Origin: a phage
Assembly (NCBI GenBank): GCA_026188615.1
Contig: GCA_026188615.1_4525.1
Length of the DNA stretch: 64,000 nt
Direction: 5' to 3' (one strand)
Shown here: positions 22,027 to 59,632 of the stretch, in pieces
How positions within the stretch are numbered: position 1 is the first letter of the stretch
How the letters are laid out: every line of letters starts with the position of its first letter
Position numbers and translations under genes: made by a program
The notes under the pieces: generated by a model
Databases searched by the model: none
The model's input: only the letters and a program-made list of their open reading frames with translations
Told to the model about the DNA's origin: nothing

Positions 22027-23715
22027 TTATGAAACAGTCATTACCGTAAATCGTCCAACTTTGCTCATCTGAAGATGTTGTCCATAACGTTGAGGGTCAT
22101 GGTCTCGATGAGAGATAATGAACACATTAGTATTTTGTAAACTTCCAAGAATGGTATCTATAGCCTTAACAGCCTCAGAATCGACAGCACCATCAAAAAC
22201 CTCATCAAGAATCAGAGTGTTGATTTTAACACCAGAGACCTTTTCAGCAATATCTCGCCATGTAAACAACAATGCGATATCGATACGCGCTTTTTCGCCT
22301 TGACTAAATGAAGCATAACTGAACTCTTCACGGCCACGTGATTTTATAGATTCATTGAATTCTTCGTCAATAGAAAACACGTAATCGGCTTCCATGATTT
22401 TAAGATAATGGTTAATCTGCTTGTTGAACAGAGGCACGTATTTTTTAATGATAGCACCTTTAATGCCAGAATCTTTTAACATATCTGTGATAATACCACG
22501 ATGGTATTTTTCAAGAACGATATCCGATTTTGTTTTAATGATTTTATCAAGTTCTTTTTGAAGCAAAGCTATCTCATCGGCATGGTCGATAAATTCCGCT
22601 GAGGCTTGTTCTATTGCAGCTTTAACTTTCTTAGCTTTATCAATAGTGGCAATCATTGCTTGTTTCTTGGTACGAATATCAGATGCAAGGTCCTGTTTAG
22701 TCTTAACATTAGCTCTATATTCGTCCACTAGGACACTCAGATTATCTCTGTGACATGTAAGTTGCTCGAATGAGTGATTACATTCATGAAGCTTATCGGT
22801 AATCTTAGAGACAATAGGATCACCCTGGTGCAACTGTGATGCACAAGTAGGACATGTACCGCCGTCATGATACATCTTAATAACTTTGTTATATGAGTCA
22901 ATTTTAGATTTAATCAAGAATGCTTCTTGTCCTATCTTGTTAAATGCCTCAGTAGGGTCTTCATCAAGAACGATATTAAGTAGTCGCTCATTAGCTTCTT
23001 CGATTTCTGCTTTTAATGAACGAGCTTCTTTGGCCAGGTCGTCGTACATATTCTGTAGACGTGCTACATTGTCACCAGATAATTTCTTTTGACGTTCGAT
23101 ATTCTCGTTATAAATCTTAATTTGTTGGATAACACCATCTTTCTTAGCATCGAGAACTTGTCCCTGGGAATTAAGTTCTCGAACTTGAGACTTATTGATT
23201 TTATCCATTTCGGCGAGTGTGCCGACTTCTAAAAGGTCTTCGACAAGTTTTCTACGAGCAGGGGTGCTAAGAGCCATGAAAGGGGTATACCCTGCCGTCC
23301 CAAGCACAACGATTTGTTTAAAAGACGCGTATGACATTCCGATGCTACGTTCAAATTCTTCTTGGAAGTCACGACTGCTGGCAGATTCATCGAGACGAAC
23401 ACCGTCAACGGAGATTTCGAAAATATTGGGCTTTTGGCCGCGTCTAATGAAGTATTTTTTATCATCGAATTCCATCCAAAGCTCAACTAAGAGCTCTTTC
23501 TTGTTCGTGCTATTAATGATTTGTCCTTTCTTAACATCACGAAATGGTTTACCGAAAAGTCCGAAAGTAATGGCTTCTAACATCGTAGATTTACCACCGC
23601 CATTTTTACCAGTGATTAATGTCTTTTGGACTTTATCTAATTGGATATCAATAGGATTCCCACCTACCGACATGATGTTTTGATAACGAACACGATTTAA
23701 TTTAAATGATTTCAT
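22027..23715 (-). CDS. 46: recombination endonuclease subunit gp46 (Rad50/SbcC-like)
   Basis: 562 aa; Walker A TGKNGGGKST, long coiled coil with CPTC zinc hook, C-terminal signature. Confidence 0.93.
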   Translation of the reverse strand: MKSFKLNRVRYQNIMSVGGNPIDIQLDKVQKTLITGKNGGGKSTMLEAITFGLFGKPFRDVKKGQIINSTNKKELLVELWMEFDDKKYFIRRGQKPNIFEISVDGVRLDESASSRDFQEEFERSIGMSYASFKQIVVLGTAGYTPFMALSTPARRKLVEDLLEVGTLAEMDKINKSQVRELNSQGQVLDAKKDGVIQQIKIYNENIERQKKLSGDNVARLQNMYDDLAKEARSLKAEIEEANERLLNIVLDEDPTEAFNKIGQEAFLIKSKIDSYNKVIKMYHDGGTCPTCASQLHQGDPIVSKITDKLHECNHSFEQLTCHRDNLSVLVDEYRANVKTKQDLASDIRTKKQAMIATIDKAKKVKAAIEQASAEFIDHADEIALLQKELDKIIKTKSDIVLEKYHRGIITDMLKDSGIKGAIIKKYVPLFNKQINHYLKIMEADYVFSIDEEFNESIKSRGREEFSYASFSQGEKARIDIALLFTWRDIAEKVSGVKINTLILDEVFDGAVDSEAVKAIDTILGSLQNTNVFIISHRDHDPQRYGQHLQMSKVGRFTVMTVS

Positions 23716-30190: not shown

Positions 30191-30661
30191 TTAATCATGT
30201 TTCCACACCCCATCGGTATTTGACCAAAGTCGCTGATTATCTGATCCTCGCCACAGCTTTTTGGTCGGAAGATTTTTCTCATACTTCCCATCAATAATAA
30301 CATCAACATATTTAAGCATTTCTAGCTGTTTAATATCTTCAAACTTATATCCTGTCCACAACCAAATGCTTTTATTGGGATAAAGATTTTTAATAGTTTG
30401 AACCACAGAGTGAATCACATCTCTGTTATCAGGATAGAGAGGGTCACCTCCGGTTATAGTCAATCCTTCTATATAATCATTATTCAAACATTCAATTAAT
30501 TGTTCTAGTGTTTCACCAGTGAATGGAATACCATTTCTAGCATTCCATGTTGATTTATTATAACACCCTTCGCATTTATGCAAACAACCTGTAACGAAAA
30601 GAACGACCCTGCAACCAGGGCCATTCACAAAATCGCAAGGATAAAATCTATCATAATTCAT
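30191..30661 (-). CDS. nrdG: anaerobic ribonucleotide reductase activating protein NrdG (radical SAM)
   Basis: 156 aa; CxxxCxxC motif CLHKCEGC; size and position as T4 NrdG. Confidence 0.9.
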   Translation of the reverse strand: MNYDRFYPCDFVNGPGCRVVLFVTGCLHKCEGCYNKSTWNARNGIPFTGETLEQLIECLNNDYIEGLTITGGDPLYPDNRDVIHSVVQTIKNLYPNKSIWLWTGYKFEDIKQLEMLKYVDVIIDGKYEKNLPTKKLWRGSDNQRLWSNTDGVWKHD

Positions 30662-32475
30662 TGATGCTTAACCCTATGCATGATTTCTTTATTTTTGCCT
30701 AGATTAAATCCGCGTTCGTTCGGATTTCCCAAGTAACCGCAGGTCCTTCTTATAGTGTTCATCTTTTTAGGATCAGTTTCTCCGCAAACTGAACAAACAA
30801 ATCCGTTTTCAGTAGGAGTCATTTCATGGGTACTTCCGCATGTAAAACACTTATCTACTGGCATATTAACACCAAAATAATCTAAATGTTGTGCAGCATA
30901 ATCCCAGACAGCCTCAAGTCCCTTTAAATTGTTTTTCATATCTGGAAGTTCAACATAAGAAATGTGACCACCTGACGCAATGAAATGATATGGCGCTTCA
31001 CGAGAAATCTTTTCAAACGGAGTAATATTTTCTTCTACTGAAACATGGAAACTATTAGTGTACCAGCCTTTATCAGTGACATCCTTTACACTTCCATATT
31101 TTTCCGTGTCGAGTTTACAGAAACGATAACACAAGTTTTCAGCAGGAGTAGAATACAAGCTAAAAGCAAAACCGGTTCTTTCGGTCCACTGTTTAAGATG
31201 AGCATTCATCTTAGTTAAAATTTCTTGTCCAATATCACGACCGACAAGAATATTCAATTCGTGAATACCAATGTATCCTAGGGACACTGAACTTCTACCG
31301 TTTTTAAATAACTCAATTATATCGTCATCAGGTTTAAGACGGACCCCGAATGCACCTTCTTGGTAAAGAATAGGAGCAACAGTCGCTTTAACCCCTTTTA
31401 AGGAACTAATTCTACACATCAAAGCTTCAAAACACAAATCCATTCGTTCATCGAACAATTCGGCAAATTTCTGTTCATTGAACTGTGTTCCAATATAAGA
31501 ATCTAATGCGATACGAGGAAGATTCAGTGTTACAACACCGAGATTATTACGTCCATCAAGAATTTCATTACCGGTCGAATCTTTCCATACGCTCAAGAAA
31601 CTACGGCAACCCATTGGAGAAACAGGAACTGAAGAACCGGTAATAGCTTTATTATTCTTAACCGAAATAATATCAGGATACATTCTTTTGCTTGCGCACT
31701 CTAGAGCAAGCTGCTTAATATCATAGTTCGGATCATCTTTATAAAGATTAACACCTTCTTCAACAAACATAACAAGCTTAGGGAAAATAGGAGTTATTCC
31801 ATCACGACCAAGACCTTTAATGCGGTTTTTAAGAATTGCCTTCTGAATCATTCGTTCAGTCCAATCGGTTCCCGTACCAAATGTAATTGTTACAAAAGGC
31901 GTTTGTCCGTTTGAACTAAAGAGAGTATTTACTTCATATTCATAAGCTTGGAATGCGTCATAGACATCTTTTTCTGTTTTGGATTGAGCATAATTCAACG
32001 CATCAGCGATTTGCCATTTTTCTGCATCTTCAACATGTTTAGCGTATGTGCGTTTAACATAAGGAGAAAGAACTTTATCGACATTCGCAAATGTAGTTCC
32101 GCCATACTGGTGTGAAGCAACTTGTGCGGTAATTTGTGCCATAATTGCAGTAGCAACGCCAATAGATTTAGGCGTTTCAATTTGAGCATTGCCTAATTTA
32201 AATCCATTCTCAAGCATCCCCTTTAAATCGACTAAACAGCAATTAGTAAATGGAAGAGCAGGAGAATAATCAATATCATGCATGTGAATGATTCCGCTTT
32301 CATGCGCATTCATAATAAAAGACGGGACCATATTTTTGGCAATGTGCTTAGACACAATACCAGCCATAAGGTCCCGTTGAGTTGGAAAAACACGAGAATC
32401 TTTATTAGCATTCTCGTTTAAAAGGTCTTTATTAGTTTTATGAATTAATCCTTCAATTTCTTTTTCAATTTTCAT
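30658..32475 (-). CDS. nrdD: anaerobic ribonucleoside-triphosphate reductase NrdD
   Basis: 605 aa uninterrupted; C-terminal Zn site CFTCGS...CSVCG and glycyl-radical motif RTCGYLG. Confidence 0.95.
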   Translation of the reverse strand: MKIEKEIEGLIHKTNKDLLNENANKDSRVFPTQRDLMAGIVSKHIAKNMVPSFIMNAHESGIIHMHDIDYSPALPFTNCCLVDLKGMLENGFKLGNAQIETPKSIGVATAIMAQITAQVASHQYGGTTFANVDKVLSPYVKRTYAKHVEDAEKWQIADALNYAQSKTEKDVYDAFQAYEYEVNTLFSSNGQTPFVTITFGTGTDWTERMIQKAILKNRIKGLGRDGITPIFPKLVMFVEEGVNLYKDDPNYDIKQLALECASKRMYPDIISVKNNKAITGSSVPVSPMGCRSFLSVWKDSTGNEILDGRNNLGVVTLNLPRIALDSYIGTQFNEQKFAELFDERMDLCFEALMCRISSLKGVKATVAPILYQEGAFGVRLKPDDDIIELFKNGRSSVSLGYIGIHELNILVGRDIGQEILTKMNAHLKQWTERTGFAFSLYSTPAENLCYRFCKLDTEKYGSVKDVTDKGWYTNSFHVSVEENITPFEKISREAPYHFIASGGHISYVELPDMKNNLKGLEAVWDYAAQHLDYFGVNMPVDKCFTCGSTHEMTPTENGFVCSVCGETDPKKMNTIRRTCGYLGNPNERGFNLGKNKEIMHRVKHQ

Positions 32476-40257: not shown

Positions 40258-40539
40258 TTACTTATCACACTTAGCAACATAATTAGGCATATCACAGAAT
40301 ACGGAGCGAGTAACTACTCGACCCTTTGACCATGCTTCAGTTGCTTGTCCGGCCGTGCTATTAATATAGTTTGATTTAATGTTCTCAATACCCTGAGAAT
40401 GTGATGCATTTACCGAACCATTGGAAGGCCCAGAAGACTGGTTACCACCAGCTCCTGCACTACCGCTGGCTGCACCCGTGGTAGCACCGACAGAGAATGC
40501 CATCATTACTGCGAATAAACCAATTACTAATTTTTTCAT
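40258..40539 (-). CDS. secreted Gly/Ser-rich small protein
   Basis: 93 aa; signal peptide MKKLVIGLFAVMMAFSVGA; two C-terminal Cys. Confidence 0.5.
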   Translation of the reverse strand: MKKLVIGLFAVMMAFSVGATTGAASGSAGAGGNQSSGPSNGSVNASHSQGIENIKSNYINSTAGQATEAWSKGRVVTRSVFCDMPNYVAKCDK

Positions 40540-45749: not shown

Positions 45750-46288
45750 TCTTTTATTTCCAGTAGTTTATTTGATTTAAGGTAATTAGCCTTTTCTAGG
45801 ACTTCAGAAGCATATTTACTTCCAGCACTTGTCTTCCATCCCGCATTATATGAGGATATAGCTTTTCTTATATCCCCGTTATGTATATTTAACCAATAAG
45901 AAAATTCGATATAAGCCCATCTGGCTGAATTAGACCGCTTAGATAGCATTTTCTTAATTTGGGCATCAGTCATATTATAACCAAGTTGGTTAATTCTTGC
46001 CCTCATTGTTGGTAGATAATTTTGGAACATTCCATACGCATGGTGACCTTTCTTATCTTTAAGATTAATACCGGCAGATGATTCCTGCCATAGTATTGCG
46101 GCCATTATGTATCCAAGTCCTTTCTTATGCATATTTTCATGCGTTTTAAATTTTCCGTCCTTAGAAAACTGTTCCCCAAACTGATAAGCATAATTCAAGT
46201 TATCGAGTTGGACATTACTAAAAGTATGCTCGGAGCTATGTGCTGATAACGAAAGAGCAAATAGACCAGCGAGTAGTGCTTTTCTCAT
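45746..46288 (-). CDS. soluble lytic transglycosylase-like protein (vs.1-like)
   Basis: 180 aa; signal peptide; SLT motifs WQESS, YGMFQ, SYNAG. Confidence 0.7.
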   Translation of the reverse strand: MRKALLAGLFALSLSAHSSEHTFSNVQLDNLNYAYQFGEQFSKDGKFKTHENMHKKGLGYIMAAILWQESSAGINLKDKKGHHAYGMFQNYLPTMRARINQLGYNMTDAQIKKMLSKRSNSARWAYIEFSYWLNIHNGDIRKAISSYNAGWKTSAGSKYASEVLEKANYLKSNKLLEIKE

Positions 46289-46296
46289 GTTTACCT

Positions 46297-46755
46297 CTAG
46301 ATTTTAATCACTGCTTTAGAAGCTTTTCCTGGTAGTCGTTTATTGTTAATAATAGCCATTCTGCATTGAAGAGTCTTCATTTTGAATGCCGGATTTTCGC
46401 GACAAACTGTAAGTCCTAACCAAAGATTTCCGTCAGTTATTTCTAAACGGCCCGGGCGATATTCGACACCTTCGTCAAAATCTTCATCAACATCTGGACG
46501 TGCCGGCATTGATAAAAATTCTGCAACTTCTTTAACATGATTTTTTACTTTATGAAATAATTCAAAAACGTAATTCTCATCTATTTCTCTCTGGATGGCA
46601 CGATCTAAGAGATGTTGAGAATACTTGATATGAAAGCCTGGTAGTCCAAGAGACTTTGCAGCATCTTTTATACTGGCATTTATTTTGCGGAACTCCGTTT
46701 CAAAGATTCGACGGAGTTTATTGCGGCGGATAAAAACGTCTGAATTGATAGTCAT
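46297..46755 (-). CDS. regB: RegB endoribonuclease-like
   Basis: 152 aa; size and position as T4 regB; sequence similarity recalled only weakly. Confidence 0.6.
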   Translation of the reverse strand: MTINSDVFIRRNKLRRIFETEFRKINASIKDAAKSLGLPGFHIKYSQHLLDRAIQREIDENYVFELFHKVKNHVKEVAEFLSMPARPDVDEDFDEGVEYRPGRLEITDGNLWLGLTVCRENPAFKMKTLQCRMAIINNKRLPGKASKAVIKI

Positions 46756-46783
46756 TTTGATTTCTCCTCTAGTTGACAGGTCT

Positions 46784-46812
46784 ATAGTAACACAACTAGA
46801 GGAGAAGTAAAC
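46784..46812 (-). promoter_or_regulatory. early-type promoter upstream of regB
   Basis: GTTTAC-N17-TACTAT. Confidence 0.5.
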
Positions 46813-46816
46813 TACT

Positions 46817-47032
46817 TTATTGATAAAATGGAGTTAAAGCCCAAGATTCTTTAGATACTATATTGGCGAAACGCCTCATCTCTTCGATTTGGCGACGACG
46901 CTGGTCAGCATAGTCTTCTTCGCCTTCTTCCTTACAATCTTCAAGGTCTTCTTCAAGATACTTTAAGTATTCACTACAAATTTTGTTGACCTTTTCTTGA
47001 AAGTCCAATAACCCAGTAATAGTAGAAGCCAT
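46817..47032 (-). CDS. hypothetical protein
   Basis: 71-aa ORF. Confidence 0.45.
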   Translation of the reverse strand: MASTITGLLDFQEKVNKICSEYLKYLEEDLEDCKEEGEEDYADQRRRQIEEMRRFANIVSKESWALTPFYQ

Positions 47033-47466
47033 TAGTATTTTTCCTCAGGACGAAATACTGCACGACACGCCCACATGCTGGCTTCTTTTAGATGTTGCTT
47101 AGCATACTTAAGAGCCTGCACTGCATCCATATCTTCTTTGGTTTGTTCCTCTGTTTCATTTTCTTTCAAGATATATGCTTCTTCAATCAGAGCATCAAAC
47201 AACAATCCAAGACGGACTTCGGCATCTTTAATAGCGTTCACTTTACTGATTTTATCATCGGTATGCGGCTTGTAGCCTTTGATGTCTTCAATCGACATAA
47301 GGAATTTCCTCATCGGTGGCAAGGTCGTATTCGACCAATTGGATAGGCTCATTAATACCATATCCACGTACAGTGATATCAGTTGTCGGATAGTTTCCAG
47401 TAATATCACCCATTCTAAATGCTTCAATGAATGATTGCTCGCCTGAGCAACTAAACCAGGCGGCAA
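47032..47466 (-). CDS. hypothetical protein (start uncertain)
   Basis: 144-aa ORF; upstream part overlaps 47288..47512 in another frame. Confidence 0.35.
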   Translation of the reverse strand: MPPGLVAQASNHSLKHLEWVILLETIRQLISLYVDMVLMSLSNWSNTTLPPMRKFLMSIEDIKGYKPHTDDKISKVNAIKDAEVRLGLLFDALIEEAYILKENETEEQTKEDMDAVQALKYAKQHLKEASMWACRAVFRPEEKY

Positions 47467-47512
47467 AACATTTTAAAACATCTTCGGACCCTTCTATAAT
47501 CAATTTAGCCAT
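47288..47512 (-). CDS. hypothetical protein
   Basis: 74-aa ORF abutting grcA. Confidence 0.4.
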   Translation of the reverse strand: MAKLIIEGSEDVLKCFAAWFSCSGEQSFIEAFRMGDITGNYPTTDITVRGYGINEPIQLVEYDLATDEEIPYVD

Positions 47513-47874
47513 TATAGACTCTCAGTAAAGGTACGAGCGATAACGTCACGCTGCTGTTCCGGAGTCAGAGAGTTAAAGCGAACTGCATAACCGGATACAC
47601 GGATGGTCAGCTGCGGATATTTTTCCGGATGCTTAACTGCATCTTCCAGAGTTTCACGACGCAGAACGTTAACGTTCAGGTGTTGACCACCTTCAATTTT
47701 AACTTTAGGTTGATGTTCAATTTCAATTTCACGGGCATTCAAACCGTAGAAAATTTCTGGATCTACAATAGCGTCTTCTTTAAAAGTCTTAGAGACAATA
47801 ATCCGGGCTTGAGTACCGTCTTCAAAATAAATAGTGCCTTTGTGTGCACCTTCAAGAATTTGATATGCTTTCAT
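47512..47874 (-). CDS. grcA: autonomous glycyl radical cofactor GrcA/YfiD homolog
   Basis: 120 aa; C-terminal [60 protein letters not shown] matches E. coli GrcA from memory; locally GC-rich. Confidence 0.85.
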
Positions 47875-47880
47875 ATAACC

Positions 47881-48189
47881 TCAATTAGAAAATAAATTTA
47901 TCCAAGATTTTTCTTTAATCAAAAATGGACCGGAATTAAACGCCATTAAACTTTGAGTGATTAATCCCTTAAATGGTCCATCAATAAATTCCATTTTGAA
48001 ATGCGGAATACTAGTCATCAACCGTGCATTAGGAGCAGTACAAAGAACCTGCTGCCCTGCGAACGGACCTTTAGTCAAACGATATCGTTTAGGTTTAAAA
48101 TGGTAAATCTCGTAATTTTCTACAAGGGCCCTTTTATTGCATACTGGGCTGTTATAACAATATTCAAAAACTTCAATAGTGGTCATCAT
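47881..48189 (-). CDS. hypothetical protein
   Basis: 102-aa ORF. Confidence 0.45.
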   Translation of the reverse strand: MMTTIEVFEYCYNSPVCNKRALVENYEIYHFKPKRYRLTKGPFAGQQVLCTAPNARLMTSIPHFKMEFIDGPFKGLITQSLMAFNSGPFLIKEKSWINLFSN

Positions 48190-48725
48190 TGCATTCCAAT
48201 CACAAAAAATTGAGGACGAGCATTACCGCCGATGCAATATTTGCTTTTGCAACAGTGTTGGACTGTTTTAATATGTACATTGTAAATCTTATCCATATCA
48301 GGAGCTTTAATAGGCTCGTCAATTATATACAGAATACGAGAAAGCGTTAATCCACGAAATTTAGAACCTTCATTGCCAATAAAACTACGGACAGAATCAG
48401 TAAATAAACGGAATCGAATATCATCGCTAGAATAACGAGAAAATTCTTTTTTAATGTTGCCAGCAGAAATTTTAGCATAAGCTGAAGTATTAGAAAGAAC
48501 AATAACTGTTCCACCATCATACAGCCAATTAACAGCAAAATTAGTTACTGCGGTCGATTTACCTGATTGTCGGCCGCCGTCTAAACGAAGTGTACAGTAC
48601 TGCTTGAGTACGTCTTCAAACGGTGGGACATAACCATTCTTACAAATTTCTTCTACTCTAGCATCAGAATGGTGTGTAAAAGCATTCATCAGGGATAGAT
48701 AAGGTCCAGTTAAAAATGTTCTCAT
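48186..48725 (-). CDS. P-loop NTPase-like protein
   Basis: 179 aa; Walker A GGRQSGKST. Confidence 0.55.
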   Translation of the reverse strand: MRTFLTGPYLSLMNAFTHHSDARVEEICKNGYVPPFEDVLKQYCTLRLDGGRQSGKSTAVTNFAVNWLYDGGTVIVLSNTSAYAKISAGNIKKEFSRYSSDDIRFRLFTDSVRSFIGNEGSKFRGLTLSRILYIIDEPIKAPDMDKIYNVHIKTVQHCCKSKYCIGGNARPQFFVIGMQ

Positions 48726-48806
48726 TTAGTTTCTCTTAAGGTTTGGGCCATTCCGTGGCACATGAATTGTCCATTTCTGTATTTACCCCTCCAAGTAATT
48801 ATGAAT

Positions 48807-48836
48807 ATACTATCACAATTCTAGGAGAAAGTAAAC
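48807..48836 (-). promoter_or_regulatory. early-type promoter
   Basis: GTTTAC-N18-TAGTAT upstream of ORF 48186..48725. Confidence 0.45.
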
Positions 48837-48838
48837 TG

Positions 48839-49141
48839 TTATTTACCTTTAATTACTTTAGCTGCTTCGATAGCCGCTTGCTGAAGGTCATCCATAGACA
48901 TACCGAATTTAGAAGCAAAGTTATCAATTTTCTTTTCGACAGCATTCAAAGGCTTGGCCTGTTTACCTTCATTAGCGCCAGGAAGAGCGAGAATACGCTC
49001 TTTGTCAATATAAAGGCTTACAAGTTTCTTACGGTCTTTATCGGACAAATCATGAAATGAATGGGCCTTTTTATTTATAGCGGCTTCTAATTTACCTGCA
49101 CTCACTCGCGCTTCAGTAATAAATTCTTGATATGTTTTCAT
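48839..49141 (-). CDS. internal (capsid-packaged) protein with capsid targeting sequence, IPII-like
   Basis: 100 aa; N-terminal CTS MKTYQEFITEA; own early promoter. Confidence 0.75.
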   Translation of the reverse strand: MKTYQEFITEARVSAGKLEAAINKKAHSFHDLSDKDRKKLVSLYIDKERILALPGANEGKQAKPLNAVEKKIDNFASKFGMSMDDLQQAAIEAAKVIKGK

Positions 49142-49174
49142 TTTTTTTGTTTCCTTGTTTGTTTTGATAGAGTA

Positions 49175-49204
49175 ATTATACCATATTAATACTTAAGCGT
49201 AAAC
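49175..49204 (-). promoter_or_regulatory. early promoter (GTTTAC-N18-TATAAT)
   Basis: Upstream of internal protein gene 48839..49141. Confidence 0.65.
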
Positions 49205-49207
49205 AAT

Positions 49208-49468
49208 TTAAGCTTTACCGCCAGAAATAATTCCGAAATTGTTAAAATCATATCCAATATCGTCAACATCTACTTTAGGACTTGCTACAACATAAGCAAT
49301 TTCACTACGTTTTGCATAGGTGTTGATTTCTTTACCATCGCCACCTAAGAAAGAATACCCATTACGTTTTAATGAGCCAAAGTCTTCCGCATCACCAATG
49401 AAAGCTTTAACTTTAAATTTAGGACCTTTGGCATCAGCTTCAGTGATAAATTCTTGATACATTTTCAT
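49208..49468 (-). CDS. internal protein with capsid targeting sequence
   Basis: 86 aa; N-terminal MKMYQEFITEA. Confidence 0.7.
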   Translation of the reverse strand: MKMYQEFITEADAKGPKFKVKAFIGDAEDFGSLKRNGYSFLGGDGKEINTYAKRSEIAYVVASPKVDVDDIGYDFNNFGIISGGKA

Positions 49469-49474
49469 TTTTCC

Positions 49475-49888
49475 TTAGTAAATTGATTTACCATAGTATT
49501 TGTACCAAGTCGGACGTTGAGCAATTTTTTCATCTAAGCGTGCTTGACTTATCGCAATGGACTCTTCGGACGGGACGTAATTATTACGAAATTCGGCAGG
49601 GATGTCGGAAATATCCTGGACAGTCGTGTCCTTGATTTTGAAACCACGTTTCAAGCATTCAGCGATTAGCTCGATTTGTCGTAAACGTAAAAATTCGAGT
49701 TTGTCGTAAAAGAATGTTACGTGACCTGTGCCTAAGATAAATGTTGGAGAGATTTTAAAATCCTTTACACGTTTACCGTTTTGAACATGTTTACGGACTG
49801 CACCGAATACACGAGGTAATTCACGATACTCAGCCATAAGATGTTGGTCGGCCAGTTCAGAAACAAGTGTTAAATTGATACGGGTCAT
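49475..49888 (-). CDS. denV: endonuclease V (pyrimidine dimer DNA glycosylase) DenV
   Basis: Internal [37 protein letters not shown]... matches T4 EndoV. Confidence 0.93.
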
Positions 49889-49915
49889 AATTTCCTCCAA
49901 GTAGTTGATAGATGT

Positions 49916-49945
49916 ATAGTATCAAAGTCCTTGGAGGAAGTAAAC
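49916..49945 (-). promoter_or_regulatory. early-type promoter upstream of denV
   Basis: GTTTAC-N18-TACTAT. Confidence 0.5.
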
Positions 49946-49946
49946 A

Positions 49947-50228
49947 CTATTTTTCTGAAGCGCCTGAAATATATTTTTCAAGACGTTGTTTCATTAACGA
50001 GCCGTTCTTAGCGATTTCTTCCGGTTTATCGCACATACGTAACAAGGCTTCAAGCTTAGCGATATCGCTGGTACGTTCAAATTTGCGAGTATCTATCTTA
50101 CTAGCAAGTTCAGAAATACGTGCTAATAGACTTTCCGCTTCAACCAAAGCTGCACCTAGCTTAGTTGCAAATGTGTCAGTAGCTTCGTTAAGAATAGATT
50201 CTGATAAAAATTCACTATATGTTTTCAT
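49947..50228 (-). CDS. internal protein with capsid targeting sequence (IPIII-like position)
   Basis: Internal [14 protein letters not shown]; its ATG overlaps the TGA of gene e (ATGA). Confidence 0.65.
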
Positions 50229-50713
50229 ATATACGCTTTCCAAGTTCCTGTTTTAAATGTTGAGATTACGCGTTTTGCGCGATTAGGTGTCTGACGATAC
50301 CATTTAGATTGGGCTAGATTTACTGCCGCTTCGTCCCAACGTTTCTGTTGAAGCATACGAAGAGAATTAGTAAAACCGGCGACGCCTGCTACACCCATTT
50401 GGAAGACCATATTGACCAATGCACATCGACGAACTGCATCTAAAGAATCATATACCGGTTTAAGTTTAGCATTACCCAAGATTCCGCGAACGGCTTTATC
50501 AACGTCTTCATTAAATAGCTTTTCAGCCTCATCAAGGGTAATTGTACCGTTGCATTTACGACCGATCATTCTGTCAAGTTCAGCTTTAGCTACGGCTAAA
50601 GACGGGTTCTTTGTTACCAAATGGCCTATGCCAATCGTCCAAAAGCCTTCAGTGTCTTTGTATAAAGTCAGTCTAAGACCTTCGTCATTACGAAGCATTT
50701 CAAATATATTCAT
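50225..50713 (-). CDS. e: lysozyme (endolysin) e
   Basis: [23 protein letters not shown]..TIGIGHL...RCALxNMVFQMG..[25 protein letters not shown] matches T4 lysozyme. Confidence 0.97.
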
Positions 50714-51920: not shown

Positions 51921-52606
51921 TACCAGCCTTCCATAGGGAATTCCAGATAAACTTGAGCGTTGACACGAATTTCATTGGTAATCTTTTTAACTCGGTCTGT
52001 ATTACGAGATACACGTCCGAACCAACGCCATCCGTTACTAATTGCACGAGAACCAGTGTGCCATGTTTGCCAATCAAACTGAAGAAGAGTACGATCCGGA
52101 GCTTCCCATTTCTCTAGTTCGCCTTTTTCGATTTTTTCGAGGACTTCTTTGTGCCACTGGCGATAGATAAGTTCGCCATCAGGAATCTGACTGAACTCTG
52201 CAGTTCCTGTTGCAAAATGAGTAGGACACACATCAGCGTTAACAAGACCAAGAATATGTTCAGACAAATAGCGAGGATTGTCATAGTCAGGTTGTCCTGC
52301 AGTAATAAAATGTTGACCAACCGGAATATCCGGGCGTGGTACATCGTCATGGTGATAACCTGGGATAGCAGGGTACCAACCGGGCATCAGCATGTGGACT
52401 CGTGAATCAAATACTACAACCGAGTCTTTCCAATCGTCAGGGAGATTTTGGATAAAGCTACGAGTAATTGGACCGCCGTTATCAAAAGCAAAATTCAAAT
52501 CGCAATTAAAGAACATAGGCTCGTTTTTAATCTGGCCATTTTTAATCGCATGAGCAAAACCACCTACTGCACGAGCTTGACTATTAAACACTTTAGAACT
52601 ATTCAT
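51920..52606 (-). CDS. hypothetical protein
   Basis: 228-aa ORF. Confidence 0.55.
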   Translation of the reverse strand: MNSSKVFNSQARAVGGFAHAIKNGQIKNEPMFFNCDLNFAFDNGGPITRSFIQNLPDDWKDSVVVFDSRVHMLMPGWYPAIPGYHHDDVPRPDIPVGQHFITAGQPDYDNPRYLSEHILGLVNADVCPTHFATGTAEFSQIPDGELIYRQWHKEVLEKIEKGELEKWEAPDRTLLQFDWQTWHTGSRAISNGWRWFGRVSRNTDRVKKITNEIRVNAQVYLEFPMEGW

Positions 52607-56408: not shown

Positions 56409-57002
56409 TTATTTCAAAGAGTTAATATATTCTTGTACATCAGCAGAAGTGGTTTCGACGCCGGCTGGAGTGCCATTGAACGTTTCAACACGAGTCAGAG
56501 TGTCTTCGATATCAACCTTAGTCAGTGCAGCTATTTCAATTACATCATCGGCCGTAGAGATACCAAGGGCATTGGCTGCTCGAGTTTCACGAATGTATTC
56601 GAGTTTGATTGCCAGGTTCTGACTAGCATCGTCAAGTTCAACCACCTTACGAGCAATTTCAATTCGCATAGCGGCGTACCCGTCAGCTTTTGTATTAAGT
56701 TGTTCGGCAGTTCGACGATACAGAAGACCAAGCTTAGCATGCATAGTAACATCTTGTCCTTCAGCCAGGAGCTTACGAATTTCACGTTCCTTAGAAGCGG
56801 CTTGCTTGTTCTTTTCATTAACAAGTTCGCGAATACGTTTTTCTTCATTAATAGATTTAACAGAAGCCGTTTTTAGTTCTTTGATTTGGGTAATCAACTT
56901 ATCTGCAGCTGCGTTATACTGTTCTTCGACAGTCAGATTTTTAGCCATAGCAGTACCCAGTTTAGTGCGAATGAATTCAACAAGTTTCTTCAGTGTGTTC
57001 AT
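56409..57002 (-). CDS. PspA/IM30-like coiled-coil protein (tentative)
   Basis: Start at [13 protein letters not shown]; long amphipathic coiled coil resembling phage-shock protein A architecture. Confidence 0.45.
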
Positions 57003-57943: not shown

Positions 57944-57973
57944 ATCTTTATGAAATATTTTTATGCCCTAGAC

Positions 57974-58001
57974 ACCAAAAAGCCCCAACCTTTCGGAAGG
58001 G
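57974..58001 (-). terminator. rho-independent terminator
   Basis: AGCCCC...GGGGCT then T5; near-copy of terminator at 43376..43404; downstream of RNA region. Confidence 0.65.
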
Positions 58002-58052
58002 GCTATGCCTTGCGGCAACCTTGTCGGGGTTCCACCTGCTAAGGCAAGTGTT

Positions 58053-58144
58053 TGTACGAAACGCCGGGATTTGAACCCGGTTATCAAGTAGTTGACGCTA
58101 CTCAATATTTTTAAAAGGCCATATCTCGACCATATCCGAACGTT
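58053..58144 (-). ncRNA. tRNA-like structured RNA element
   Basis: T-arm CCGGG-TTCAAAT-CCCGG followed by 7-nt strand pairing with CGGAACG 77 nt upstream; no D or anticodon arm could be folded. Confidence 0.3.
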
Positions 58145-58315
58145 CCGTCAAAAACGCTACTCGGCTTACGGCAAAGATATTTCCTCGAATCGATAATTCG
58201 GTGCGCCGTTTCTGCTGTGATGTAAGGGGATATTAACAAATCGTAAAGATTTATTAAGACCAGTCCTTACTCAGGGAACATCAGTCCGACGACTTACCGG
58301 TAGCGACCCGGCTTC

Positions 58316-58711
58316 TTATTTTGGCATATCATCAATTTGCTCTCGACGCCGACGCCATAGATTAATCGCTTCATTAACACATTCGGCGTTTGGTATATGA
58401 CGGCAATAATATAATGATTCGCGTTTCTGGAACCGATGTTGCAATGGGATTTCGTTTAAAAGGTCTTTACGGTCAAAGTATTCAAAACTAGTTAACCCGG
58501 AACGGTTTTTAATGAACTTCCAATGACCGAATTCATTTTGAACATAGATGTAATCGGCATGCTGATACAGCGAATTAATCAATCGATGAGAAATAACTGT
58601 ATCATATTCGTTAAAATAAAACGTTAAATCATGAACTACCAGATAAATATTGCCTTTCATATTTTCCTCACTTAAAGTTGGTGCCTCTAGAAAGATTTGA
58701 ACTCTCACCAT
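58316..58711 (-). CDS. hypothetical protein (start uncertain)
   Basis: 131-aa ORF; likely begins at internal MKGNIYLVVHDL. Confidence 0.45.
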   Translation of the reverse strand: MVRVQIFLEAPTLSEENMKGNIYLVVHDLTFYFNEYDTVISHRLINSLYQHADYIYVQNEFGHWKFIKNRSGLTSFEYFDRKDLLNEIPLQHRFQKRESLYYCRHIPNAECVNEAINLWRRRREQIDDMPK

Positions 58712-58739
58712 TAACCTTAGAATGATTATATGCTATCCA

Positions 58740-59405
58740 TTACACTATAGAGGCAATTAAATTATTTACAATATCTTCTTTATAAACTTCAGCATAATGA
58801 AGTTCATATATTTCCCATCCTAATGATTTTATAATATCATGGCGTTCTTTATAATAAGGGGCCAAAATCTTTTTCTTAGGATTGGAGTAATGTTGGTTTC
58901 CATTAACTTCAATAATAATCTTTTTATCTATTAAAGCAATATCCGTGCAATACGCTCGGTTTTTAACCGGTTGGTATTCTTCAATAAATGAAATTCCATT
59001 TTCTATTAATTTAGATTTCAAAAATTCACAAGGCACAGATTTAAATTTTGTATTTTTCTTCCAAGGATGTTTATCGGGGTTTTCATTCAACCATTTTTTC
59101 CGAGCATTAGATATTTTTATTCTAGCTTCCTCAGAGTGTTCTCTACCTAATGAAGCGGCTGACAATTTTTGTCTAGTCTCTTCCGAAATTACTACAGGAA
59201 CACCAGTCTTTTTAGATACAACATACTGGTTTAAATTACCTGAAGCTATACGTGCTTTATTCATTGCTGCAATGGCTGATTTAGAACTTTCTTTATACAA
59301 TTCCAATTTAGGGTTGGATTTACACCATCTAGTGTGGTTAGCCATCCATCCTTTAGGTTTATTAGAAATATCAAATTCCATATTACAATGTTTACAAATG
59401 CTCAT
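58740..59405 (-). CDS. putative endonuclease (Zn finger, NUMOD3-like helix, C-terminal Vsr/DUF559-like PD-(D/E)xK domain)
   Basis: Track ORF starts on TTG; ATG MSICKHCN...; C-terminal IIEVNGNQHY...ERHDIIKSLGWEIYEL; sits beside the tRNA genes. Confidence 0.5.
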   Translation of the reverse strand: MSICKHCNMEFDISNKPKGWMANHTRWCKSNPKLELYKESSKSAIAAMNKARIASGNLNQYVVSKKTGVPVVISEETRQKLSAASLGREHSEEARIKISNARKKWLNENPDKHPWKKNTKFKSVPCEFLKSKLIENGISFIEEYQPVKNRAYCTDIALIDKKIIIEVNGNQHYSNPKKKILAPYYKERHDIIKSLGWEIYELHYAEVYKEDIVNNLIASIV

Positions 59406-59479: not shown

Positions 59480-59551
59480 CTGGCGCACTTGGACTCGAAC
59501 CAAGATAAAGAAGTTAACAGCTCCCCGTAATAACCTTTATACGATGCACCA
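59480..59551 (-). tRNA. tRNA-Asn (anticodon GUU)
   Basis: Cloverleaf folded by hand: U1-A71 7-bp acceptor, D loop with GG, anticodon loop CUGUUAA, T arm CTTGG-TTCGAGT-CCAAG; no encoded CCA. Confidence 0.7.
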
Positions 59552-59557
59552 TTTGTT

Positions 59558-59632
59558 TGGTGACCCTGGCTGGTTTCGATCCAGCTACCTATCAGTTATG
59601 AGCTGACAGCTCTCCCATTGAGCTACAGGGCC
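59558..59632 (-). tRNA. tRNA with CAU anticodon (Met or Ile2-type), CCA encoded
   Basis: Acceptor GGCCCTG/CAGGGTC, D stem GCTC/GAGC, anticodon loop CUCAUAA, T arm GCTGG-ATCGAAA-CCAGC, 3' ACCA. Confidence 0.7.

Follow-up and report, generated by a model that had tools for sequence, protein, structure and literature searches.

Two 'spare part' proteins for pyruvate formate-lyase (PFL) have been validated, YfiD (GrcA) of Escherichia coli and Y06I, the product of phage T4 gene vs.6, according to Andorfer et al. (2021; PMC8683613), who cite Wagner et al. (2001). As described there, oxygen cleaves PflB at Gly734, YfiD or Y06I binds the cleaved enzyme, and the PFL activating enzyme (PFL-AE) installs a glycyl radical on the small protein, restoring the cleaved PFL; the T4 protein was found to carry out this rescue in vitro. 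YfiD consists of a disordered half (residues 1–60), which helps binding and activation and is dispensable for catalysis, and a structured half (residues 61–127) (PMC8683613). Recombination between host and phage within single genes has been described for psbA and psbD of cyanophages, where it is accompanied by patchy GC content in T4-like myoviruses (Sullivan et al., 2006, PMC1484495; Zeidner, 2005). The gene considered here lies at 47512–47874, on the minus strand, of a 64,000-nucleotide (nt) stretch of phage DNA (NCBI GenBank assembly GCA_026188615.1, contig GCA_026188615.1_4525.1; this whole stretch is hereafter the window). It is the ortholog of T4 vs.6/Y06I, and it is very probable that it represents the Mosigvirus version of this spare part for host PFL, made chimeric through conversion by host grcA.

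The closest published analogue of such a chimera is the intragenic recombination of cyanophage psbA and psbD. In both cases a host-derived metabolic gene of a T4-like myovirus is patchy in GC content, and segments are exchanged between host and phage. In vs.6, by contrast, the tract covers only 171 nt; its left edge is sharp and recurs at the same domain border, and its sequence is practically that of the allele the host carries today. Moreover, the phages are classic coliphages and exchange was seen only in the host-to-phage direction. No description of a nucleotide-level mosaic of vs.6 was found in the literature searched, which did not include the key T4 papers (Miller et al., 2003; Wagner et al., 2001), and nothing relevant was found on grcA, phage and horizontal transfer. 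As a gene, the one in the window adds little, since both gene and biochemistry are already known and RefSeq phage genomes list it under the name GrcA. The sole non-trivial addition is the sharply bounded, host-identical tract with its parallel in a Klebsiella phage, which would extend the psbA type of host–phage mosaic beyond cyanophages.

The two halves of vs.6

A 120-codon open reading frame (ORF) running from ATG to TAA was found exactly where a first-pass annotation had placed a GrcA/YfiD-type gene with a T4 homolog, and both parts of that identification were confirmed. The Pfam Gly_radical model matched residues 60–101 only (67.3 bits against a cut-off of 22.2; 2e-18), as expected of a small stand-alone glycyl-radical domain protein of the ∼14 kDa class without a catalytic barrel, while phrog_1209 matched over its full length (positions 1–121, E = 9e-63). 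Searches of the PDB returned E. coli GrcA/YfiD (6OWR) at E = 2e-42 and PFL (1H16), residues 696–759, at E = 3e-26; the radical domain is 78% identical to PflB 696–759. All 60 C-terminal residues are identical to residues 68–127 of E. coli GrcA. The N-terminal 60 residues are only ∼25% identical to it and form a half that is seven residues shorter than its counterpart; they share the motifs ARxIVxK, ED..V and RE..E..P.V with GrcA, which marks this half, at the sequence level, as a genuine but distant GrcA homolog. Like E. coli GrcA, the small protein carries an RVSGYAV motif, in which Gly95 (codon at 47590–47592) is the predicted glycyl-radical site from alignments to GrcA and to PFL residues 696–759. 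Its equivalents are Gly102 of YfiD and Gly734 of PflB (numbering of PMC8683613, partly established knowledge).

The division into two halves was also evident in base composition. Over its full length the gene has 41.3% GC, where the window averages 37.0%; this puts it in the top 6% of segments of its size (z = 1.6). The elevated GC reported by the first-pass annotation is confined to the 3′ 183 nt, at 48.1% (z = 3.0, top 0.23% of equal-sized segments), close to the 48–49% of E. coli grcA; the 5′ 180 nt, at 34.4%, fall under the window mean. Over the 3′ 183 nt, identity to E. coli grcA is 97.8%, with four differences, all synonymous, and an uninterrupted identical run of 146 nt. Upstream of codon 61, identity to E. 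coli grcA is ∼50%. Along the gene, starting at its 5′ end, successive 30-nt bins showed identities (%) of 57, 52, 38, 56, 47, 50 and 63, followed by 100, 100, 100, 100, 97 and 90, so that there is a step at codon 61 (GAAGGTGGT...). It is at the corresponding point that the disordered half of YfiD gives way to the structured half. Three of the four synonymous differences fall in the last three sense codons, which with the stop (47512–47523) read GAG AGT CTA TAA as compared with GAA AGC CTG TAA in E. coli. RB16 and KP15, which are distant relatives among the phages, have the same GAG AGT CTA codons (GAGAGTCTATAA ending). Because the last three codons are thus of phage type, the host-like tract is limited to codons 61–117 (171 nt, 47524–47694), which encode the glycyl-radical domain and contain a single synonymous difference from E. 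coli grcA (synonymous divergence, dS, 0.023). The remaining 5′ half, codons 1–60, occupies 47695–47874.

When the full 64-kb window was compared by megablast with 5,426 complete E. coli genomes, only the 3′ segment of vs.6 gave a match, to grcA in every genome, together with a weak match to pflB. As the sole match of 64 kb, the resemblance is far beyond chance. The window holds other short GC-rich islands (40291–40525, 57956–58189, 23200–23446, 52219–52503 and 56434–56733), whose 183-nt segments reach 48–50% GC, equal to or above the vs.6 tract. None of them had a megablast match among the same 5,426 genomes, indicating that high GC alone is no sign of host DNA in this window.

The nearest relatives of the two halves differ. 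In the 5′ 180 nt the gene is 89% identical to T4, 73–77% to CC31-like phages, 59–60% to RB16/RB43/KP15, 49% to E. coli and 46% to both Citrobacter and Salmonella. The corresponding values for the 3′ 180 nt are 97% (T4), 75–79% (CC31-like phages), 79–84% (RB16/RB43/KP15), 97.8% (E. coli), 90.6% (Citrobacter) and 81.7% (Salmonella). Beyond the T-even orthologs, therefore, the closest relative switches from CC31-like phages in the 5′ half to E. coli in the 3′ half. The same segment of E. coli grcA is 92.8% identical to that of Citrobacter, 83.9% to Salmonella and 86.7% to Klebsiella, as vertical descent predicts and in keeping with how its 5′ half is related to them. The phage tract is closer to E. 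coli than Citrobacter is, and so nests within Escherichia. As the E. coli tract follows enterobacterial grcA, has host composition and was present in all 5,426 genomes searched, the direction of transfer was assigned as host to phage. Constraint on the protein cannot account for the DNA identity, since RB16 encodes the identical 60 C-terminal residues at only 83% nt identity.

The gene is conserved in position. The window comes from an RB69-like Mosigvirus; the best phage match of the gene is Mosigvirus vB_EcoM_G53 (98.9% nt identity), and its identity is 118 of 120 amino acids and 98% of nucleotides to RB69 vs.6, and 112 of 120 amino acids and 93% of nucleotides to T4 vs.6. In the denV–regB interval of both T4 and RB69, the syntenic gene, flanked by vs.7 and vs.5, bears the annotation vs.6, 'autonomous glycyl radical cofactor GrcA'. 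The order vs.7-vs.6-vs.5, all on the same strand, is shared by the window, T4, RB69 and G53; in JD18 the gene is at the same place, adjoining regB, and full-length homologs were found throughout T4-like phages. The T4 gene likewise encodes a chimeric protein of 120 residues with an E. coli-like tract (98.4%). Of the eight residues in which the T4 and window proteins differ, seven lie in the N-terminal half, and the eighth is an R73H change of T4 inside the radical domain, at which position the window protein has the residue of the host. The 5′ half shows nonsynonymous (dN) and synonymous divergence from T4 of 0.055 and 0.44 (dN/dS ∼0.13), which indicates purifying selection on it.

The host-identical C terminus and the host-like GC content of the 3′ half could also be taken for a host grcA that was captured whole, recently, and is ameliorating towards phage composition. 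We consider this scarcely credible, because the 5′ half is much closer to CC31-like phages than to E. coli grcA, because identity changes as a step and not as a gradient, and because the gene occupies one and the same place near regB across T4, RB69, G53 and JD18 within a family of full-length homologs. Of the recent acquisition from the host proposed by the first-pass annotation, the part that stands is the host origin of codons 61–117; the 5′ half is old phage sequence in conserved Tevenvirinae synteny. On the sequences compared here, we conclude that vs.6 of the window is a chimera of codons 1–60 from an old phage lineage and codons 61–117 from a host, and not a recently captured host gene. 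Mechanistically, homologous recombination with the grcA on the chromosome of an Escherichia host would have replaced, by gene conversion, the 171 nt encoding the radical domain of an old phage grcA homolog.

Spread and history of the tract

The tract is widespread among T-even phages. A 183-nt query from E. coli retrieved 639 phage records at ≥95% identity (range 94.4–99.5%), consisting of T4/RB69-type phages isolated on Escherichia, Shigella, Yersinia, Salmonella and Hafnia. An exact 41-nt segment of the tract was found in only five IMG/VR contigs, none of them new to the set. Identity of the 3′ 183 nt to E. coli grcA is 98.4% in T4, 97.3% in RB69 and 97.8% in the window, which is therefore mid-range among T4/RB69-type records, and its tract is no more recent than that of T4. 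The other phages compared were further from E. coli grcA: RB16/RB43 at 82–83%, CC31 at 79%, KP15 at 79–81% and T5-like phages at 69–73%. It had been suggested that a recent acquisition should show as a nucleotide identity to host grcA above that of other phage homologs; the window gene does not stand out within its own group and lies far above the homologs of other phage groups (69–87%).

A parallel case was found in Klebsiella phage JD18 (Jiaodavirus). Its vs.6 (1321–1683 of the locus sequence) has the same 120-residue architecture, with a GC content that rises from 37% in its 5′ part to 55% in the 3′ half. The tract carries the LLDAVEH variant of Klebsiella/Salmonella type and is only 84–86% identical to that of the window. 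As a reference we used a metagenome contig with a full-length bacterial grcA, found with a Klebsiella GrcA query, whose flanks are nearest to a Klebsiella and a Raoultella metagenome-assembled genome (82–83% over 1.6 kb). Against this Klebsiella/Raoultella-clade grcA, the 30-nt bins of JD18 gave 42, 33, 46, 48, 37, 40 and 43%, then 100, 100, 100, 93, 97 and 73%. The step falls at the same codon, 61, as in the window, and the tract is 96.5% identical to the reference. A JD18-type chimeric vs.6 is also present in Klebsiella phage RCIP0102 (421–783 of the locus sequence). We infer from these alignments that the 3′ half of the phage gene has been overwritten by host grcA on two or more occasions, involving two phage genera and two host alleles; in JD18-type phages the same kind of replacement would have occurred independently, with a Klebsiella-type allele. 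One IMG/VR contig of JD18 type looks frameshifted (a 359-nt match with an 80-residue ORF), either through an error in sequencing or because the gene has become a pseudogene.

Divergence between T4 and the window was estimated gene by gene. The dS was 0.024 in the vs.6 tract and 0.44 in the vs.6 5′ half, as compared with 0.84 to >2 in the flanking genes regB, vs.4, vs.7, vs.8 and denV, which are highly diverged between the two phages; for vs.5 it was beyond estimation (49% nt identity, lengths 225 and 177 nt). The whole of vs.6, its 5′ half included, is thus far less diverged between T4 and the window than every neighbour in 46297–49900. This suggests that T-even genera have exchanged vs.6 at a later date than the genes around it.

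A comparison of 16 alleles from Tequatrovirus and Mosigvirus separated the history of the tract from that of the 5′ half. Fixed differences between the two genera number 12 over the 5′ 180 nt, as against zero over the 171 nt of the tract (Fisher p = 4e-4). Within genera, the mean numbers of differences in the 5′ half and in the tract were alike, 4.9 and 5.1 in Tequatrovirus and 2.8 and 2.5 in Mosigvirus, which argues against a special synonymous constraint on the tract. It is well supported that the tract is younger than the split between the two genera. If instead the tract were ancient, and kept identical at the nucleotide level by selection on codon usage, mRNA structure or a function of the nucleic acid itself, no recent recombination would be needed; grcA is highly expressed and codon-biased, and the very low dS between T4 and the window would follow. 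This explanation appears very unlikely to us. Synonymous changes are evidently tolerated within both genera; in RB16, RB43 and KP15 the amino acids are identical or almost so at an nt identity of 79–84%; JD18 has a different, Klebsiella-type tract; and a scan of the window with Rfam returned three tRNAs only, with no family within vs.6.

Several observations point to more than one conversion. The E. coli sequence equals the consensus at every position of the tract, and three phages have no differences from E. coli. The last three codons of Tequatrovirus alleles read GAG AGT TTG, GAA AGT TTG, GAG AGC TTG, GAG AGT CTG or GAG AGC CTG, so that phage-type and E. coli-type states are mixed, and two sites spaced by 3 nt show all four combinations. 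This is the pattern expected from several conversions with different end points. Alternatively, a single host-to-phage conversion in one T-even lineage could have been followed by spread from phage to phage across Tequatrovirus and Mosigvirus, the conversion by host DNA being neither repeated nor ongoing. Exchange between phages at this locus is indicated by the low divergence of the whole gene relative to its neighbours, and by vs.6 of Salmonella phage pSe_SNUABM_01 (221–583 of the locus sequence), in which positions 57–72 carry RB69-type bases in an otherwise T4-type 5′ half, a mosaic of two phage sequences. A single conversion is the less likely history, although one to be taken seriously, in view of the 12 fixed differences against none, the centring of the tract on E. 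coli, the mixed 3′ codons and at least one more event with another host in JD18. Recurrent host conversion within T-even lineages is likely but not proven.

On the boldest reading, the radical-domain half evolves in concert with host grcA, T-even phages repeatedly patching these 171 nt by homologous recombination with the host chromosome during lytic infection; we give this slightly better than an even chance. If it is true, the tract would be the only stretch of this phage region with enough homology to the host for conversion, and each conversion would restore that homology. It would then form a natural record of recombination between phage and host DNA in phages regarded as destroying host DNA, and would mark the genus in which a phage recently replicated, being of E. 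coli type in T4/RB69-like and of Klebsiella type in JD18-like phages. A lytic coliphage gene of which one half matches the host chromosome essentially base for base, with a counterpart in Klebsiella phages, would offer a clean case of such conversion in T4 that is open to experiment.

Some points weigh against a spare part made chimeric by host conversion. T-even phages degrade host DNA, which limits the chances of recombination; on the grounds of T4 marker rescue, recombination with host DNA is still feasible. The organism of the JD18 reference contig is placed in the Klebsiella/Raoultella clade by the similarity of its flanks only. Judged by the codon usage of the window itself, the synonymous codons of the tract have an ordinary likelihood (z = −0.46); Leu CTG (five of five) and Pro CCG (three of three) are the sole atypical ones. 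The codons CGT, GGT, ACT and GTT of highly expressed E. coli genes coincide with T-even preferences. Codon adaptation, which had been put forward as a check, was consequently rejected as a discriminating test, and nucleotide identity is the informative measure. The NCBIfam GrcA equivalog model TIGR04365 (spare_glycyl), which covers residues 18–120, scored 159.1 bits, slightly short of its 170-bit cut-off, because the N-terminal half is divergent. Finally, no demonstration of an in vivo benefit to any T-even phage was found in the literature accessible to our search.

Other phage groups were compared with 158 bacterial grcA sequences. RB16/RB43, KP15, CC31, T5-like phages and 150-kb metagenomic phages were considered as further recent conversions and rejected, their best identities being only 70–87%. 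The C-terminal halves of RB16, RB43 and KP15-like phages match the GrcA of their hosts in amino acid sequence, including the host-specific LEDAVKH and LLDAVEH variants, at a nucleotide identity of only 79–87%. These may be older conversions that have since drifted, or may reflect selection for a match to the host. In Escherichia phage OES_C-2, vs.6 (227–583 of the locus sequence) has a 6-nt deletion that changes EIEIE to EIE, and its 3′ end is of E. coli type up to the stop codon save for one base.

Function of the vs.6 protein

From its orthology with Y06I, the window protein is predicted to accept a radical from PFL-AE and to rescue PFL. In this scheme, oxygen would cleave host PflB at the Gly734 radical, the phage C-terminal radical domain (residues 61–120, identical to host GrcA) would dock into the cleaved PflB, and the host activase PflA would place a new radical on Gly95, so that production of acetyl-CoA and formate could resume. 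The spare part would sustain the fermentative energy supply of a microaerobic infected cell whose own grcA is no longer inducible. The phage may supply it because host expression is shut off, and would thereby keep acetyl-CoA, formate and ATP flowing in fluctuating oxygen. Whereas E. coli GrcA is expressed from the host's own grcA promoter, vs.6 would be expressed from a lytic phage operon. A radical domain identical to that of the host would guarantee compatibility with PflA and PflB, and the phage-specific N-terminal half may tune recognition. The chimera also points to a constraint, namely that the radical domain must fit host PflB and PflA exactly, with the N-terminal recognition half free to be phage-specific.

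The first-pass annotation had also joined the gene with nrdD and nrdG in a repair module for oxygen-damaged glycyl-radical enzymes, and here it was not borne out. The window encodes nrdG at 30191–30661 and nrdD at 30658–32475, 15 kb and dozens of genes away from vs.6. All three genes belong to glycyl-radical biochemistry and share a genome, and the protein could be imagined as a spare part for the phage's own NrdD, activated by NrdG. A role in nucleotide metabolism was guessed by Nolan et al. (2006; PMC1524935) from the Pfam match alone, and reviews leave room for spare parts of other glycyl radical enzymes, although none is known for any enzyme other than PFL according to a 2026 review. BLASTP of the vs.6 protein against the NrdD of the window detected no similarity (E = 6.3), and the PDB search returned many PFL-class enzymes and no ribonucleotide reductase at E ≤ 1. 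With a radical domain identical to that of GrcA and so similar to PflB, and with a T4 ortholog that works with PFL and PFL-AE, a dedicated partnership with NrdD is highly improbable. We conclude that vs.6, nrdD and nrdG share an anaerobic or microaerobic theme and are not a module.

The vs.6 neighbourhood

In the window vs.6 is preceded by vs.7 (47881–48189) and followed by vs.5 (47288–47512), with vs.4 lying between vs.5 and regB (46297–46755), which ends the denV–regB interval. Further upstream are vs.8 (48186–48725, minus strand) and denV (49475–49900). A Shine–Dalgarno-like GAGG (47879–47882, minus strand), read from the sequence and the ORF spacing, lies 4 nt upstream of the vs.6 ATG and overlaps the vs.7 stop, and the vs.6 stop overlaps the vs.5 ATG (TAATG). 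This tight packing makes it probable that vs.7, vs.6 and vs.5 are co-transcribed. A scan of 46000–50300 for promoters and terminators gave 13 promoter-like sites, against 13.1 expected.

The vs.8 ortholog contains a Walker-A-like motif, GGRQSGKS. Besides its own family, phrog_1488, it weakly matched phrog_2 (E = 1e-5), a family of terminase large subunit ATPases; the Pfam search gave no match. Between vs.8 and the lysozyme region, three small ORFs on the minus strand (48839–49141, 49208–49468 and 49947–50243) begin with a common motif (MKTYQEFITEA or MKMYQEFITEA-like). RB69 annotates the denV-flanking ORFs of the corresponding region as 'internal head protein'. The shared N terminus resembles the T4 capsid-targeting sequence, and the set differs from ipII/ipIII of T4. 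The region would be a variable internal-protein locus.

The three tRNA genes of the window, all on the minus strand, are Arg-TCT (58679–58754), Asn-GTT (59480–59551) and Met-CAT (59558–59632), each found by both ARAGORN and Rfam.

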